Below, piece after piece: positions 7,492 through 53,680 of a stretch of 64,000 bases of DNA. Under the pieces are notes generated by a model. It was given only the letters and a program-made list of their open reading frames with translations. It was not told where the DNA came from and ran no database searches. Both the position numbers and the translations under genes were made by a program. This DNA is from Desulfosudaceae bacterium (GTDB lineage: Bacteria; Desulfobacterota; Desulfobacteria; Desulfobacterales; Desulfosudaceae): positions 1,120,001 to 1,184,000 of the forward strand of contig CAXXDV010000001.1 in NCBI GenBank assembly GCA_963674745.2. The letters run 5' to 3'. Numbering within the stretch: position 1 is the first letter of the stretch; the number at the start of each line of letters is the position of its first letter.

Positions 7492-7518
7492 AGGGTTCAA
7501 GGGGTCGAGGGGGCAAGG
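7492..7518. repeat. Short degenerate octamer tandem repeat
   Basis: AGGGTTCA AGGGGTCG AGGGGGCA AGG; same units as 24380-24416. Confidence 0.55.
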
Positions 7519-24379: not shown

Positions 24380-24416
24380 AGGGTTCAAGGATTCAAGGGG
24401 TCGAGGGTCCAAGGGA
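24380..24416. repeat. Degenerate octamer tandem repeat
   Basis: AGGGTTCA AGGATTCA AGGGGTCG AGGGTCCA AGGGA just downstream of the argJ stop. Confidence 0.65.
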
Positions 24417-48607: not shown

Positions 48608-50401
48608 ATGGCCATCCAAAAATTCCGCAACGTTCATGACATGATGAAAACAACGGTTGACGCGTACCCTGACAAACCGGCCTATCAATGGTTTTCAGAA
48701 ACGGGAAAAGCGGTTGCGCCGATCACATGGCGCGATTTTTATCCGCAGGTCACCAGTGTCGCCAAAAGCCTGATGGCCCTCGGGGTTGAGAAAAACGATA
48801 AAATCAACATATTAAGTTATACCAGTTACCGCTGGATACTCACCGACCTGGGTATAACGACCTGCGGTGCGGCCACCGTCGGAATTTACCAGTCCAACCT
48901 GCCCAAGGACTGCCAGTATATTATCAATCACTCCGATGCGGTCATCGTTTTCGCGGAGAACCAGGCCCAGCTGGACAAGCTGTTTGAAATCAGAAAAGAG
49001 ATTCCCGCCATCCGCAAGGTCATTCTGTTTAACGGCACCCATAATGATGACTGGGTAATGAGCTTTGAAGAATTTCTGGAACTCGGCCGGGATATTGGTG
49101 ATGATGCCCTGCAGAAACGGATTGACGCTACTTCTGCCGACGATGTGGCCGGTATTGTTTATACTTCCGGCACCACCGGCGTTCCCAAGGGTGCGGTGCT
49201 CACCCACGACAACTTCACCTTTACCTCCCAATCCGCTCTGGCCTGTCTTGACGCACACTCAAACGATACGACCTTTCTTTTTCTTCCCATGGCCCACGTG
49301 TTTGCCCGAATCTGCGTCAACCTGGCCCTGCTGGTGGGTGCCAAGACGGTCGTCGCCCGAAGCATCGACACCCTGGTTGATGACCTCAAGACCGCTCAAC
49401 CCGACTGGTTCGCGAGCGTACCCCGCATTTATGAAAAAGTATACGCCAAAGTGGTCAGCGGCGCGGAAGCCAAGGGCGGCGCGGCGCTTAAAATCTTTCA
49501 CTGGGCATGCGCTGTCGGGGACGAGGTCAGCGACTGCCTGCTGAACAAACGCCCCATTCCCGCCATGACCAAACTCAAATACAAAATTGCCACCAAACTG
49601 GTTTTCAGCAAACTGCAGGCCGCCCTGGGCGGCCGGGTCAAATGGTGCATTTCCGGTGCCGCCCCCCTGAACCCGTCCATTGCCAAATTTTTCCATGCCG
49701 CCGGGATTCTGATCTTAGAAGGCATCGGCATGAGTGAAAACACCTCTTTTACCAGTGTCAATCGCCTCGACAATTACCGCTTCGGCTGGGTCGGACAGCC
49801 CGGACCGGGTATTGAACAGAAAGCCGATGAGGACGGCGAAATCCTGTTCCGGGGTCGAAACGTGATGAAAGAGTATTATAAAATGCCGGAGGAAACCGAA
49901 AAAACCATTCTACAGGGCGGCTGGCAACGCACCGGTGATCTGGGCGAAATCGACGCTGACAATTTTCTCAGAATAACCGGCCGAAAAAAAGACCTGATTA
50001 TTACGGCCGGCGGTAAAAACATCGCTCCGTCAGCCATAGAAGGGGTCATCGCCACCTCCAAATACATCGCCCAGGTTTGTGTTATCGGCGATAAACGCAA
50101 GTACCTGACCGCCTTGGTTACGCTGGATCAGGAGACCGTCACCGAATTTGCGGATGATCACGATATTGACTATAACAGCTTTGATGACCTGCTCGCAGAC
50201 GAAGCGATTATCGACCTCATCAACAAAGAGGTGACTGATAAAAACAAGGGCTTTGCCTCGTTTGAATCAATCAAAAAAGTTACCATTGTCCCGGAATTCA
50301 CCATCGAAAACGGCCTGATCACCCCGACTTTCAAGGTTAAAAAAAATATCGTTCAGGACCGCTTCAAGGATGAGATCGATGCCATGTATCCGGGCGAGTA
50401 A
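48608..50401 (+). CDS. fadD: Long-chain fatty acid-CoA ligase
   Basis: YTSGTTGVPKG, LEGIGMSE, TGDLG, GRKKDLII..GKNIAP; RBS AAGGAGG. Confidence 0.92.
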   Translation: MAIQKFRNVHDMMKTTVDAYPDKPAYQWFSETGKAVAPITWRDFYPQVTSVAKSLMALGVEKNDKINILSYTSYRWILTDLGITTCGAATVGIYQSNLPKDCQYIINHSDAVIVFAENQAQLDKLFEIRKEIPAIRKVILFNGTHNDDWVMSFEEFLELGRDIGDDALQKRIDATSADDVAGIVYTSGTTGVPKGAVLTHDNFTFTSQSALACLDAHSNDTTFLFLPMAHVFARICVNLALLVGAKTVVARSIDTLVDDLKTAQPDWFASVPRIYEKVYAKVVSGAEAKGGAALKIFHWACAVGDEVSDCLLNKRPIPAMTKLKYKIATKLVFSKLQAALGGRVKWCISGAAPLNPSIAKFFHAAGILILEGIGMSENTSFTSVNRLDNYRFGWVGQPGPGIEQKADEDGEILFRGRNVMKEYYKMPEETEKTILQGGWQRTGDLGEIDADNFLRITGRKKDLIITAGGKNIAPSAIEGVIATSKYIAQVCVIGDKRKYLTALVTLDQETVTEFADDHDIDYNSFDDLLADEAIIDLINKEVTDKNKGFASFESIKKVTIVPEFTIENGLITPTFKVKKNIVQDRFKDEIDAMYPGE

Positions 50402-50403
50402 AC

Positions 50404-50660
50404 GTGTTAAGGTTTTAGCGTTTTAAGGTTTTAGGGTTTGGGGTGAGGAGGGTTGGGGCTATAAAGTTTTAGTGGTTAAGTGATTATGTGTTTATGTGAT
50501 TAAGGGGGTTAGGCTTGGAGATCGGGGATTGGAAAGAAGGGGCTCTGGCGCTTAAATGGTTCGGGGTTTTATGGTTTTAGAGTGTTAAAGTTTTAGGGTG
50601 CCGGGGCTATAAAGCTTTAGTGGTTAAGTGATTATGTGTTTATGTGATTAAGCGGTTAGG
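50404..50660. repeat. Left octamer-periodic repeat array
   Basis: Units such as GTTTTAGG, GGTTAAGT, GATTATGT, GTTTATGT; internal 50-bp direct repeat 50455-50504 / 50603-50652 (1 mismatch). Confidence 0.85.
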
Positions 50661-50680
50661 TAATCTTTTGACCGGTCGCA

Positions 50681-50703
50681 CCACAAAAGCTTTTGCTTTG
50701 TGG
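50681..50703 (-). terminator. Hairpin immediately after the stop of the DAC-like gene
   Basis: CCACAAAAGC-TTTT-GCTTTGTGG. Confidence 0.45.
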
Positions 50704-52515
50704 TTATTGTTTCATCCAGCCCCAAGCGTTTCGGTCGGGAATAACGTTTTGATAAAGAACGACTTCTTTATCATCGTCTGTGCAAAAAACACTGATTCCA
50801 CCATCTTGCGACACTACAATAGCAATTGCATCTTCATCTTCGCTGCAGTATCCGAATGCTGATCGATGACGCATTCCGAACCCGTCTAGCTTCTTACTGC
50901 CAACTTCGATAGTTCCTGGACCAATACCGATAGCGCGTGCCATACATTTAACTTCCGTATTGGGCGGTGCCGGTTTATACGAAATCTCCGTACCAAACCC
51001 TTGTATCAATAAATCATCGCTAATAATAGTAGCACCATCAACGGCCGTAAGAGCCGCCACTGTGTCAATTGCACGGGTCAGTGCTCGGCGAGAGAAGTGA
51101 GCTTGTTCGATCATGGACGCGTTATTGTTGAATTCCGGTTGCTTTAATGATTCCTCAATCTCTGCATAACTCACAATGGCTTTTCGAAGAATCGCTGCAT
51201 CAGTGTTGTGTTTATGGGTCAATCGTTGATCACATTTAGCTCCAAGCAACAATGTTCCACCATGAGCATTAGCAACCATTTTTTGGATAATTTTGCAAAG
51301 CGCAAATTCACCGACTGCGGATGCGGATATAGATCGGCTTTCTTCCGGCAAAGCCTGTTGAAACCATTTTCTGAGTCGTTTCACCCCCACAATGGGTTGA
51401 AAATAATGGCTTCGTCCATTTCTTAACTCCCAATGATGGTTGCTGTCTACTATTTGGATATGTCCTGCTCCAAGAACGCGGAGTCGGAGATCCACCTCCG
51501 TAACTGATCTGGAAGCCTTTCTAACGAACGACCACCGCAATACGTCATCTTGCCATTTTTTTTGCAACTCTAAATCTGTAATTCCTCGTATTTCAAGTGA
51601 AGCATGGTCAGCACGTGGACAGACAATCAAATGGCGGAAACCAAGACCGATTGTCGGTGCCAGCTTTACAAGATTCTTCGTTGAATATTCTGCAGTAAAC
51701 GGGATTTCCACAAATTCAGATGTAGCCTCGAATTTGATCTTAAAACGAACAGGTCTTCCCTCTTCATTTTGCAGGCTAGCATCATACGCATTTACAACCA
51801 TATCTCGAAGAAATGTGCATGGATTGGGCCGCCGTTCATATGCGATTGATTCAAAAAACTTACAATATTCTTCGGCGAGGCCTTCAGGACCACAACGAAC
51901 TGTCGAGTCCTTGATTCTTTGCTGAACTTGCTTGCGGTGGGCTTCCAACAAAAAAACAAACTCTTTAGACATTGAAGAAAACCACTCCGGAGCGTTGCCG
52001 TCCCAGAGGCCACCAAGTTGCCCGCTGTTGGTTGGGTCTAGGAAGTTTCCATTACCTTCAAGTTGCTTTAGGGCTCTAAAATCGGTTATTAAAGCCTGCA
52101 TAAGATCGTTTTCTGCATCAACAGAAACTATTTCTCGAACCGACGATAATGCTAATTGTATAATATCAAAAGCCGACGAAGACATCTCGTCCACATCGTT
52201 GTGGCTTGGCGTGGCATTATTAAGACGAAATAATCGGTGCTTCAACTGAACCGCCTTACGAATCGCCTCGTCAGCTTTGATAATTGGCATTGAATCCCCA
52301 GAATACTGGGCCAATCCACAACCTTCAATTTCTCCTGTTTGGCAGAATGACTCAACAGTATCGAGCCCAAAACTTAGTCTTGTAGCAGTTTCTATGCGAC
52401 TTTCTTGTTCGTTTTCGGAGAGAATGGGGAGAATGCGCCGAGCTAGCCGCACAACTAAGGCGAGCAACTGTCGGCCGCTAAGGGATGCAAGATCATTTTG
52501 GGTGAGCTTATCCAA
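50704..52515 (-). CDS. Multidomain protein with C-terminal DisA_N-like diadenylate cyclase domain and a DACNV-like sensor domain
   Basis: HGG, AVDGATII..GFG, GMRHRSA, AIVVSQDG (DAC catalytic DGA and RHR motifs); middle ASLQNEEGRP..F..LVKLAP; TTG start. Confidence 0.75.
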   Translation of the reverse strand: MDKLTQNDLASLSGRQLLALVVRLARRILPILSENEQESRIETATRLSFGLDTVESFCQTGEIEGCGLAQYSGDSMPIIKADEAIRKAVQLKHRLFRLNNATPSHNDVDEMSSSAFDIIQLALSSVREIVSVDAENDLMQALITDFRALKQLEGNGNFLDPTNSGQLGGLWDGNAPEWFSSMSKEFVFLLEAHRKQVQQRIKDSTVRCGPEGLAEEYCKFFESIAYERRPNPCTFLRDMVVNAYDASLQNEEGRPVRFKIKFEATSEFVEIPFTAEYSTKNLVKLAPTIGLGFRHLIVCPRADHASLEIRGITDLELQKKWQDDVLRWSFVRKASRSVTEVDLRLRVLGAGHIQIVDSNHHWELRNGRSHYFQPIVGVKRLRKWFQQALPEESRSISASAVGEFALCKIIQKMVANAHGGTLLLGAKCDQRLTHKHNTDAAILRKAIVSYAEIEESLKQPEFNNNASMIEQAHFSRRALTRAIDTVAALTAVDGATIISDDLLIQGFGTEISYKPAPPNTEVKCMARAIGIGPGTIEVGSKKLDGFGMRHRSAFGYCSEDEDAIAIVVSQDGGISVFCTDDDKEVVLYQNVIPDRNAWGWMKQ

Positions 52516-52520
52516 TCGAA

Positions 52521-52666
52521 ACCTTAATCACATAATCACCTAAACACATAACCACTTAACTACCAGAGCCGAGGCCCTCCGCGCCCCAAACCCTAAAACT
52601 TTAAAACTCTAAAACCATAAAGCCCTTAACCACCAGCGCCCCGGACCCTCGCACCTCAAACCCAAA
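52521..52666. repeat. Right octamer-periodic repeat array (inverted relative to the left array)
   Basis: 52590-52621 is the reverse complement of 50568-50599 at 31/32; 52523-52560 mirrors GTTAAGTGATTATGTGTTTATGTGATTAAG. Confidence 0.85.
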
Positions 52667-53680
52667 TCAAAGGTCCACCCCATTGATCAGGGTCTGACAA
52701 TAAGCACAGCGACCGTTTGTAATGCGGTAGTTTTTCAATTCATAATAGCCGGCCCGTTCGACGATTATTTTACCGCAATCCGGGCAATAGGTATTTTCGC
52801 TGGGGTGTCCGTGAACGTTGCCGATGTAGACATATTTCAAACCGGCTTTCAAACCGATTTCACGTGCCCGGGTCAGGCTTCCGATCGGTGTCGGCGAAAC
52901 ATCCATGAGCTTGTAGGCGGGCTGAAAACGGCTGATATGCCAGGGGGTTTCCGGGCCCAGTTCATTGACCAGAAATTCGGACAGGTTTTTAAGCTCCTGT
53001 TCCGAATCGTTCATCCCCGGAACCACCAGGGTGGTCACCTCCACAAAAACGCCCCTTCTTTGAAAATGCTTCAGGCTTTCCTTTACGGGCTCCAGTCGCG
53101 CCTCGCACAATTCCTGGTAAAACTCATCATTGTAGCTTTTTAAATCAACACTGGCCGCGTCAAGATAAGGGGCGATCATATCGATGGCATCGGTGGACAT
53201 ATAACCGTTGGTTACAAAAACGTTTTTCAAGCCCTTTTCGTGAGCCAGCAAGGCCGTATCATAACAGAACTCAAAGTTCACCGTGGGTTCCGTATAGGTA
53301 TAGGCAATACTGCCACACTTGTTTTTCAGGGCATCGTCGACCACGTCGGCGGCGGAAAAAACGTTTTCACCCACCCTTCCGGCTTCCCGGGGCATCTGTG
53401 AAATTTCGGCATTCTGACAGAACGCACACCGAAAGTTACACCCAGCGGCGCCGATGGAATACGTCTGGCTTCCCGGCATCACATGGAAGAGGGGTTTTTT
53501 CTCGATGGGATCGGGATTGATGGCGACCAGCCGACTGTATACCAGCGTTTCTAAGACACCGTTCACATTCTGCCTGACTTTGCATTTGCCGAAGCCGTTG
53601 TTGTTGATGACACATCGATGATTGCATAGCAGGCATTGCACCTTCTTGTCTTCAATGGTTTCATAGAACAACGCTTCCAC
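52667..53680 (-). CDS. amrS: AmmeMemoRadiSam system radical SAM enzyme
   Basis: CLLCNHRC, DPIEKKPLFH, GCNFRCAFCQN, YTYTEP, HISRF, YVYIGNV, CPDCG. Confidence 0.9.
   Translation of the reverse strand: MEALFYETIEDKKVQCLLCNHRCVINNNGFGKCKVRQNVNGVLETLVYSRLVAINPDPIEKKPLFHVMPGSQTYSIGAAGCNFRCAFCQNAEISQMPREAGRVGENVFSAADVVDDALKNKCGSIAYTYTEPTVNFEFCYDTALLAHEKGLKNVFVTNGYMSTDAIDMIAPYLDAASVDLKSYNDEFYQELCEARLEPVKESLKHFQRRGVFVEVTTLVVPGMNDSEQELKNLSEFLVNELGPETPWHISRFQPAYKLMDVSPTPIGSLTRAREIGLKAGLKYVYIGNVHGHPSENTYCPDCGKIIVERAGYYELKNYRITNGRCAYCQTLINGVDL

Follow-up and report, generated by a model that had tools for sequence, protein, structure and literature searches.

The window analysed is a stretch of 64,000 nucleotides from a Desulfosudaceae bacterium (assembly GCA_963674745.2, contig CAXXDV010000001.1, positions 1,120,001 to 1,184,000; G000:C1:1120001-1184000, with G000 standing for the genome under study), and positions at the locus follow the numbering of the window. 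The subject is a single gene enclosed by arrays of degenerate octamers and lying between two convergent host genes. On the left is the gene named fadD (48608..50401, + strand), encoding an AMP-binding acyl-CoA synthetase (PF00501, E 2e-66, and PF23562); on the right is amrS (52667..53680, - strand), encoding a radical SAM enzyme (PF04055) of the AmmeMemoRadiSam type, relatives of which carry the NCBI name “AmmeMemoRadiSam system radical SAM enzyme.” The genes neighbouring the locus also include a methyltransferase. The codon-usage scores of fadD and amrS (92nd and 88th percentile of 3269 genes of at least 600 nt) are typical of the genome, and the convergent housekeeping flanks of the preliminary description were recovered. 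The two genes converge on a segment of 2265 nt (50402-52666) that holds one long open reading frame (ORF) and is otherwise repeat. The arrays were said to touch the host stop codons, and they do so: the fadD stop codon occupies 50399-50401 and the first array copy starts 2 nt past it, at 50404, while the last base of the right arm is 52666 and the amrS stop codon begins at 52667.

In alignment, the flanks of the enclosed gene prove to be one composite module, about 130-150 nt long, present three times. Two of the copies are direct and lie on the left, an outer one (50402..50530) and an inner one (50531..50670), both with the G/T-rich strand as the + strand; the third is inverted and lies on the right (52516..52666), with the G/T-rich strand as the - strand. 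The order within a module is a G-rich leader, four to five units of the type GGTTTTAR (A units), a GC-rich linker, and four units of the type GTGDTTAD (B units), followed in the left outer module by a G-rich tail; a unit detector reads “AAAABBBB” at 50412-50503. The linker, which is not repetitive, also aligns among all three modules. Strand-skewed octamer arrays on both sides are borne out by rows of period 8 or 16 from Tandem Repeats Finder (TRF; 50403-50439, 50472-50502, 50620-50658, 52525-52559, and 52588-52626) and by a GC skew of +0.34 to +0.44 over 50200-50799. The inverted arms, first noticed as a match of 31 in 32 nt, are longer than stated, with 43 nt at 91% (50557-50599 and 52590-52632) and 99 nt at 80% (50407-50505 and 52522-52620), and the 50-bp duplication seen on the left is a direct repeat of 53 nt at 96% (50455-50507 and 50603-50655).

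The best non-self matches of the left inner module in the genome are the two other arms of the locus (76% and 73%). The three arms are mutual best matches at 73-80%, with arms elsewhere at 72-79%, and similar composite modules occur at other loci with about 72-78% identity over 100-130 nt. In similarity specific to the partner arm, this pair ranks second of the 41 inward-facing pairs of the genome described below. As an alignment result, the similarity of the arms fits a recent origin through duplication of one module. The duplex predicted between the arms has an energy of -155 kcal/mol, against -90 +/- 6 kcal/mol for shuffled arms. A search of the arrays against Rfam gave no family, with matches at chance level only. 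A short spacer past the stop codon of the enclosed gene (50671..50703, - strand) contains a small hairpin by folding; the fold of 50655-50712 on the - strand has -12.4 kcal/mol (z -2.2) and was equalled by 6 of 200 shuffles, and no terminator was called in this spacer by a consensus scan.

The enclosed gene (50704..52515, - strand), here called the cargo gene, encodes a protein of 603 aa in which an N-terminal stretch of about 200 aa, helical in character, is followed by a DACNV domain and then by a diadenylate-cyclase (DAC) domain; the TTG start of the gene abuts the last array unit. It is the only ORF with a family match in the 2.26 kb, in line with the earlier statement that no transposase or integrase lies inside. 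The DACNV match (PF21751, 36.5 bits) and the DAC match (PF02457, 30.7 bits) both exceed a cut-off of 27, and the latter spans the last third of the domain. An alignment of 14 sequences shows no variation at D493-G494-A495 (DGA), G547, R549, and H550 and almost none at R551, and the N-terminus of the protein aligns with the starts of its homologues. In an AlphaFold model (predicted local distance difference test, pLDDT, 76; predicted template-modelling score, pTM, 0.63), the C-terminal part matches structures of CdaA, DacM, and DisA with template-modelling scores on the target of 0.52-0.63; all eight PDB matches at E <= 0.001 are CdaA or DacM. The DAC fold and the DGA and RHR motifs that mark the diadenylate cyclase superfamily are thereby both present. 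The NCBIfam equivalogs of CdaA, CdaS, CdaM, and DisA were not reached (17-21 bits against cut-offs of 189-225), and the protein belongs to a separate DACNV-DAC family. The additional N-terminal region of about 200 aa is common to only three or four metagenome proteins, and the N-terminal 230 aa of the protein had no match in Pfam at E up to 10. The cargo gene thus described probably encodes an active enzyme, a predicted sensor-linked diadenylate cyclase of a rare family. No PADLOC defence-system model matched this protein or six other ORFs enclosed by array pairs. A promoter scan found no promoter-like site in either arm and seven inside the cargo gene (3.4 +/- 2.1 expected); without such a site in the arm, the gene is probably read through from amrS.

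The composition of the gene is unlike that of its neighbours, as had been noted: its GC content is 0.449, its GC content at third codon positions (GC3) of 0.382 lies at the 3.2nd percentile, and its codon-usage score lies at the 0.6th percentile of the same 3269 genes. Queried with the cargo protein, 59 of 60 related genomes gave no match and one gave a weak partial match. Only three close proteins (58, 47, and 44% identity), all from short metagenome contigs, were found among 5.8 billion; the remaining protein matches cover the C-terminal 60% only, at no more than 35% identity. A scan of genome contigs with the single cargo protein returned no relative, and relatives were found once an alignment served as the query: species genomes of Planctomycetota, Acidobacteriota, Cyanobacteria, and Chloroflexota, with 24-31% identity over long matches. 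Composition and distribution together firmly support horizontal acquisition of the DACNV/DAC gene.

The place of the insertion can be read from relatives. AmrS was searched in 30 relatives and the DNA of eight loci was compared. The convergent neighbours fadD and amrS are found in two members of the same genus (G002 and G001) and one member of the same family (G005), with fadD orthologues 80, 82, and 69% identical to that of the genome under study and AmrS 75% (G002) and 80% (G001) identical; the other five loci have amrS without an adjoining fadD. In all three convergent cases the stop codons are only about 3-15 nt apart and no array is present, so the array-gene-array unit is an insertion between two stop codons. 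A target-site duplication is not readable at the junction, where the ancestral spacer of 3-15 nt has diverged, and the last three residues of AmrS differ from those of the congeners. This comparison firmly supports insertion of the gene and its arrays relative to the congeners. The junction proposed for comparison in the preliminary description is therefore empty in two congeners and one family member, the gene is not syntenic in relatives, and arrays recur elsewhere as inverted pairs; the claim of a single foreign gene stands, both as a codon-usage outlier and as a whole unit of arrays and gene that was inserted.

The octamer arrays are far more widespread than the locus. Period 8 is the commonest TRF period in the genome (591 of 2803 rows), and a detector for the A and B cores finds 249 arrays covering 12,951 nt, which merge into 209 blocks; none was found in 1 Mb of first-order Markov sequence. 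The unit patterns are GTG-D-TTA-D and GGTTTTAR. Tandem triples of the B unit number 540 in the genome under study, 65 in G001, and 42 in G002, with one each in G005 and G029 and none in 56 others, and the same pattern of three B units read backwards had no match in the 61 genomes. Tandem triples of the A unit number 64 in the genome under study, one each in G001 and G002, and two in G021, and are found nowhere else. By these counts the B type is common to the genus and the A type, at the outer end of the modules, is essentially a species-level novelty; the presence of A units in both arms of the cyclase locus fits a young event. Among viral contigs, the four-unit pattern was met at 17 loci, 16 of them with one isolated match, with no sign of arrays carried by phages.

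The units themselves are constrained. Some 200 loci in three species adhere to a single unit pattern. Six of the eight positions of the B unit are fixed and the two free ones take A, G, or T, C being found there in 19 of 968 and 13 of 777 cases. The B units of an array form a near-random string of nine variants, and adjacent B units are identical in 17% of 714 cases, compared with 15% for random pairs and 15.3% for shuffles within runs; since neighbours are no more alike than random units, the pattern indicates constraint and not plain slippage. The C content of the blocks on the G/T strand is 4%, and with C nearly absent from that strand, a single arm could hardly fold on itself and would pair with any partner in any register. 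The C/A-strand unit may resemble a DnaA box and the G/T-strand unit the heptamer preferred by cold-shock proteins; neither likeness is relied on here.

Many array blocks, among them those at G000:C1:140871 (-), C1:151307 (+), and C3:2291272 (+), end in a particular way. A G-rich tail (GGGGTTTGAG-like, at most two mismatches) follows the last B unit in 46 of the 209 blocks and a small CCCGC-TTYG-GCGGG hairpin in 19, the two occurring together in 15. At this stringency the tail motif alone is common genome-wide (5130 matches), and only the combination of tail and hairpin is informative.

The placement of the blocks follows a polarity. With “+-” denoting a G/T-rich strand on the left and a C/A-rich strand on the right (inward-facing), neighbouring blocks less than 1 kb apart comprise 37 “+-”, six “--”, three “++”, and no “-+” cases, and a count independent of the unit (TRF with strand skew) gives 39 “+-”, four, four, and no “-+”. 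Seen from both sides, the G/T-rich strand runs 5' to 3' toward the intergenic middle. With a pair defined by a gap of less than 4 kb, the genome has 41 “+-” pairs, whose flanking genes are oriented -/- (13), +/+ (11), +/- (11), and -/+ (6); each arm lies against its outer gene, whichever way that gene runs. Judged from crude gene calls (greedy longest ORFs of at least 90 aa), 110 of 209 blocks have a gene no farther than 60 nt from the 5' end of the G/T strand and 31 of 209 have one as near to its 3' end; overlaps of more than 20 nt with a called gene are limited to 9 of 209 blocks. Among single blocks with a gene no more than 60 nt upstream, 46 of 57 are in sense, directly after the stop codon. 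Taken with the unit statistics, these patterns firmly establish the arrays, at the level of sequence, as a repeat family of the heptamer/octamer class that is restricted to the genus, constrained, and polar.

Twelve of the 41 pairs enclose an ORF, and the scan for inverted pairs that had been suggested thus yields differing gene families, mostly of low GC. The mean GC content is 0.457 for ORFs inside “+-” pairs (n=12) and 0.532 for genes in “-+” segments (n=25; Mann-Whitney p 0.003). Spurious readings of GC-rich repeats probably account for three of the twelve, and for this reason the real contrast between inside and outside is expected to be larger. Lower GC for genes between any two arrays was also considered and rejected (0.510 against 0.503 for the genome), the “+-” class alone being lower. 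Pfam assigns the real pair-enclosed ORFs to DACNV/DAC, DUF7919, CsgG, a RAYT-like Y1 transposase (which also matches NCBIfam REP_Tyr_transpos, below its cut-off), and IS110, and leaves several without a family. Enrichment of foreign-looking, variable content inside convergent pairs is firmly shown by these comparisons. One site bears directly on variability: a pair lies between the same host genes in two species (G000 C1:1834499-1835208 and G002 L038:4975-5736) and encloses an ORF of 109 aa in the first and of 121 aa in the second, both small and hydrophobic, with no BLASTP alignment between them. At another site, a weaker case in which the left flank differs, a pair with a 144-aa ORF corresponds to an empty pair at the same right-hand gene in G001. 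A further candidate for the same site with other cargo, G002 L034, was dropped; it is a 770-aa metabolic fusion gene beside a single array.

Many pair centres hold GC-rich palindromes of the GTAG type, which form a separate, dispersed REP-like family. These GTAG-tagged palindromes give more than 200 BLAST matches, are often found in pair centres or inserted in arrays, and occupy mirrored places in both arms of one pair (C1:1834560-1834590 and C1:1835110-1835140). REP sequences, BIMEs, and the REPIN-RAYT system resemble the arrays in being intergenic singlets and inverted doublets with a preferred orientation, often after stop codons; in contrast, the octamer arrays are not palindromic and lack the GTAG tag.

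A second setting is the polysaccharide-synthesis locus at C1:172-240 kb (L029-L031). Here host genes for NeuB, DegT, UDP-glucose dehydrogenase, an epimerase, and a sugar transferase are interleaved with eight AAA_14/DUF4143 ATPases, HEPN+MNT pairs, AbiEii/AbiEi, MazF, Schlafen-AlbA_2, and a four-helix-bundle intervening-sequence protein (IVP). The accessory genes are set apart by same-direction arrays, and opposite-direction arrays close the series; over G000:C1:172000-240000, “-” arrays occupy the left part and “+” arrays the right part, with an array-free core of 25 kb between them. At the end of the cassette-like row, at G000:C1:234460-235624, short TAACCACT arrays of alternately 25 and 17 nt recur every ~168 nt as a higher-order tandem repeat.

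A second IVP gene (23S_rRNA_IVP, TIGR02436, C3:569904-570239) is bracketed by GTTGAGGG x6.6 and CTCAACCC x3.8 (G000:C3:569816-570328), which represent a third octamer type with the same inward polarity. The preliminary description named similar arrays as flanking four-helix-bundle and GxxExxY genes in deltaproteobacteria; both IVP genes are indeed flanked by arrays, while GxxExxY (PF13366) was not found in the genome. The cyclase locus also resembles the intervening sequences of 23S rRNA genes in having one accessory gene inside inverted repeats able to form a long stem, yet its cargo is a 603-aa cyclase and not an IVP, and the genes on either side of it encode proteins. The genome has one 23S gene, with no array inside or adjoining it.

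Short-unit intergenic arrays were noticed decades ago in cyanobacteria, Xanthomonas, and Geobacter, without an assigned function or origin. The short tandemly repeated repetitive (STRR) heptamers of cyanobacteria and the long simple-sequence repeats described by Mrazek are said to be of the same repeat class. The available parts of one report describe intergenic heptamers of Xanthomonas (GGGAATC) and Nostoc (GGGGAYT) that lie nearer the 5' neighbouring ORF in either orientation, form convergent pairs in 70 and 75 cases in two Xanthomonas species, and occupy the same sites in two species with varying length and sequence (Rehm et al. 2015, PMC4692102). The TAACTGA repeats of Beggiatoaceae, known from part of another report, are a further example (MacGregor 2015, PMC4679880). 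The arrays described here share with the Xanthomonas, Nostoc, and STRR repeats the tandem units of 7-8 nt, the intergenic and lineage-specific occurrence, the single G-rich strand, and a placement marked by proximity to the 5' neighbour, frequent convergent pairs, and sites shared among relatives. They differ in having AT-rich units of 8 nt, with several types in fixed order per module. A feature stressed in the same report is the presence of at least four G3 tracts, from which a quadruplex could form (PMC4692102); with no G3 tract in either GTGDTTAD or GGTTTTAR, that idea is not applicable to the units found here. On this comparison the arrays are a further member of a described, unexplained kind of heptamer/octamer repeat. 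The accessible text on Xanthomonas and Nostoc states that there is generally no association of heptamer repeats with mobile elements (PMC4692102), and it contains no report of acquired genes in pair centres or of a unit missing from congeners.

In Geobacter metallireducens, according to the part of the report consulted, paired opposite-strand sites of three to five tandem units of 7-9 nt lie at variable distance, occur in one species and not its relative, and have insertion sequences at a fixed distance; the units (GTTGCTYN, TCTCCGTS, and MTYCTGA) were read by the authors as binding sites of a global regulator (IHF/HU) (Aklujkar et al. 2009, PMC2700814). The likeness lies in paired opposite-strand sites of short units, with two IS110 copies in arrays in the present genome; the units and the host clade are different, and no enclosed cargo is described in that part of the report. 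A full-text literature search, which covered few subscription journals, found no paper on acquired genes bracketed by such arrays in prokaryotes and none on “DACNV.” What the locus adds is a large, different cargo, an empty site in congeners, the contrast between inside and outside, and the unit statistics. It gives a datable event, a 37-to-0 polarity rule, and evidence of sequence constraint, all missing from earlier descriptions of such repeats, and turns a descriptive oddity into testable alternatives: a recombination slot, an RNA or DNA insulator, or a product of break repair.

The reading favoured here, tentatively and without calling it probable, is that array pairs may be slots whose content changes by recombination. 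The arrays would serve as register-free homology or recognition sites, and recombination between them would insert, swap, or flip the enclosed DNA, driven either by host homologous recombination on “portable homology” or by a factor that reads the unit. Accessory genes would accumulate inside pairs or in chains of same-direction arrays while host genes stay outside, and such recombination could yield both the direct-array chains of the polysaccharide locus and the inverted brackets of the cyclase locus. If pairs do channel gene gain, they would be a novel source of genome plasticity, one independent of dedicated mobile-element genes.

A number of results weigh against this. With regard to content, 29 of the 41 pair centres are empty in the sense of holding no ORF of at least 100 aa, and part of the remainder is the spurious readings already mentioned. 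Nowhere else in the genome is a pair centre found again together with its arms; long matches of centres elsewhere are limited to a RAYT copy (90%) and an IS110 copy (99.8%). Only 6 of 11 DUF4143 copies (by tblastn) have an array within 300 nt. With regard to arrangement, 127 of the 209 blocks are single, and genuinely so, no more than 8 of them facing at least two opposite-strand units within 500 nt on their inner side, and the placement counts depend on the crude gene calls. The idea that all pairs are true mirror copies was rejected: just 3 of 41 pairs have arms that match each other best, and mean arm similarity is only slightly higher for partners (0.269) than for non-partners (0.246; permutation p 0.007). 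With regard to agents, no recombinase or dedicated enzyme could be linked to the arrays, the five reverse-transcriptase (RT) matches in the genome all belong to the group II intron type, and no Ku was found although the genome is 99.96% complete. No integrase is present among 33 genes annotated in cassette-like rows, a genome-wide integrase search not having been made. Contigs of the same organism from metagenomes (three runs of one study) break at the arrays, and no empty-site, circular, or inverted junction was seen in them; no contig joins fadD directly to amrS, and the “joints” that do appear are short-sided (20-46 nt) and reflect cross-mapping from other array loci. These contigs speak neither for nor against excision, inversion, or expression.

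Two comparisons among genomes point the same way. The closest full-length homologue of the cargo protein with flanking DNA, 45% identical and on a 17-kb metagenome contig, has no array of period 7 or 8 on either side; the arrays were therefore not carried with the gene between lineages and belong to the host lineage, not to the cargo gene. At 10 of 13 array loci compared in G001 and G002, four pairs included, an array is present at the site orthologous to an array of the genome under study, while neither the number and order of units nor the centres can be aligned between species. The occupation of orthologous sites suggests that the arrays are long-lived, anchored on the ends of host genes, and that a host function could explain them. 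The proposal of a cargo-capture or mobility system with an enzyme acting in trans therefore fared unevenly: an inserted foreign unit was found and inverted pairs recur, while neither a recurring unit nor an enzyme candidate came to light. Its narrower form, in which the arrays are the mobility sites of this cargo, finds no support in the homologue whose flanking DNA is free of arrays or in the many arrays at orthologous sites of congeners.

Array units quite different from those of the genus, of 7-8 nt, flank at least 5 of 56 distant homologue loci, mostly in Acidobacteriota, where the background density of arrays may account for them. At the DACNV-DAC loci L049, L058, L077, L085, and L096 of Acidobacteriota, arrays lie within ~300 nt, with units CCAATCC, CATCGGGT, AAGCCAG/CTTCTGG, AACTTCG/GAAGTTA, and ATCGAGCT; the sets at L077 and L085 are inverted.

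It is also possible, if doubtful, that the arrays are host cis-elements acting in RNA or DNA, the gene having simply landed in an intergenic region and the arrays having been selected or having spread to insulate fadD and amrS. Candidate roles include a platform for a single-strand-binding protein (with a footprint of 7-8 nt), Rho entry on the C/A strand, which lacks G, and stems for RNase III. A host function explains persistence and constraint equally well and is compatible with recombination slots. It would fit arrays whose position is stable among congeners despite turnover of their units, the six fixed positions of eight with C excluded from the free ones, and the single blocks that follow a near upstream stop codon in sense (46 of 57). 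The orientation of both arms suits the host flanks and not the cargo, and the strong duplex predicted between them (-155 kcal/mol) could be a processing stem. The same positional rule, together with transcription of the repeats, is reported for Xanthomonas and Nostoc in the consulted part of Rehm et al. 2015 (PMC4692102). The relatives are less accommodating, for in three of them fadD and amrS do without arrays. In pairs, gene starts are abutted as readily as ends (36 same against 17 opposite, within 60 nt), and no binding protein is known. At the polysaccharide locus, the sense strand of the arrays is rich in C/A to one side and in G/U to the other, and because the sense-strand type differs by side, no single RNA role fits.

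The convergent pairs might instead constitute a gene-capture device that works without an integrase, the mutually complementary arms providing a universal docking or recombination site; this is rather unlikely. The site would be recognised by a genus-specific factor or made by templated synthesis at 3' ends, and foreign genes would be inserted, exchanged, or flipped between host genes. The resemblance to integron cassettes extends to a promoterless single ORF between repeats, rows of accessory genes, and an empty site in relatives. The arms, however, are tandem octamers and not attC-type imperfect palindromes, they are inverted and not direct, and there is no integrase among the annotated neighbours. 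Were such capture to occur, the heptamer/octamer repeats of many phyla could be footprints of one general mechanism.

Foldback transposons of Drosophila have long inverted arms of short tandem sub-repeats, whose type changes inward, around a variable centre that can hold genes; arm length varies between copies, and transposition has been demonstrated for these eukaryotic elements. By analogy, the whole unit could be a transposon of this type, moved en bloc by a transposase in trans, with the empty pairs as gene-less miniatures. The arms of the cyclase locus are indeed inverted copies (80% over 99 nt, 91% over 43 nt) that share a non-repeat linker, the unit was inserted exactly between two stop codons, and the genome offers 41 pairs with variable centres and composite modules at other loci with 72-78% identity over 100-130 nt. 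Yet the near-identical copies expected of a recently active element are absent, partner arms are specific in only 3 of 41 pairs, many pairs occupy orthologous sites in species only 75-81% identical in AmrS, and the diverged ancestral spacer of 3-15 nt leaves no readable target-site duplication. There is no candidate transposase either; those met are IS110 and the RAYT-like Y1 transposase, plus the group II intron RTs, each with its own kind of target. In all, inverted arms are present, but neither a transposase nor a target duplication nor recent copies were found, and an origin of this kind is improbable.

Little more can be said for the arrays as neutral, minisatellite-like expansion in unconstrained intergenic DNA, with the gene arriving by illegitimate recombination and its flanks colonised later, which has a similarly low probability. 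The arrays do fill the intergenic space right up to the coding sequence on both sides, unit number does vary between species at the same site, and neutral expansion is the default reading of long simple-sequence repeats in literature cited by Rehm et al. 2015 (PMC4692102), in the part of that paper available. Slippage, however, would not leave adjacent units 17% identical against 15% for random pairs, nor C almost absent from the two free positions, nor one unit pattern over about 200 loci in three species; the arms of the locus share non-repeat sequence, and the 37-to-0 polarity needs a cause. Least probable is that the pairs are scars of chromosome breaks, in which G/T units were added to both 3' ends by telomere-like or target-primed templated synthesis and DNA was captured between them: it is the only model to predict the polarity without exception (37 “+-” against no “-+”), and degenerate non-slippage strings of units, centres of unrelated filler or foreign genes, and the altered last residues of AmrS would suit it, but all five RT matches are of the group II intron type, Ku was not found in the 99.96% complete genome, composite modules in fixed order with a linker would need a long template, and arrays at orthologous sites argue for persistence and not for repeated breakage.

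Mobile elements occur in association with some of the arrays. A RAYT-like gene lies in the pair centre C3:1064302-1064871 and has a 90% copy at C3:1179248-1180120. An IS110-family element is present in two copies (C3:2262155-2263764 and C3:2593754-2595363, the latter in L107) with 99.8% identity over 1610 nt. Each copy is placed within or next to C/A-rich arrays, and the left end common to the two opens with A-type units. IS110-family elements may use the arrays as targets.

Elsewhere in the window, short intergenic arrays of a further unit, AGGGGTCA / AGGGTTCA, are found at 7492-7518 and 24380-24415, one between divergent genes and one between two genes on the minus strand. Their units are related to the G-rich tails behind many B arrays.

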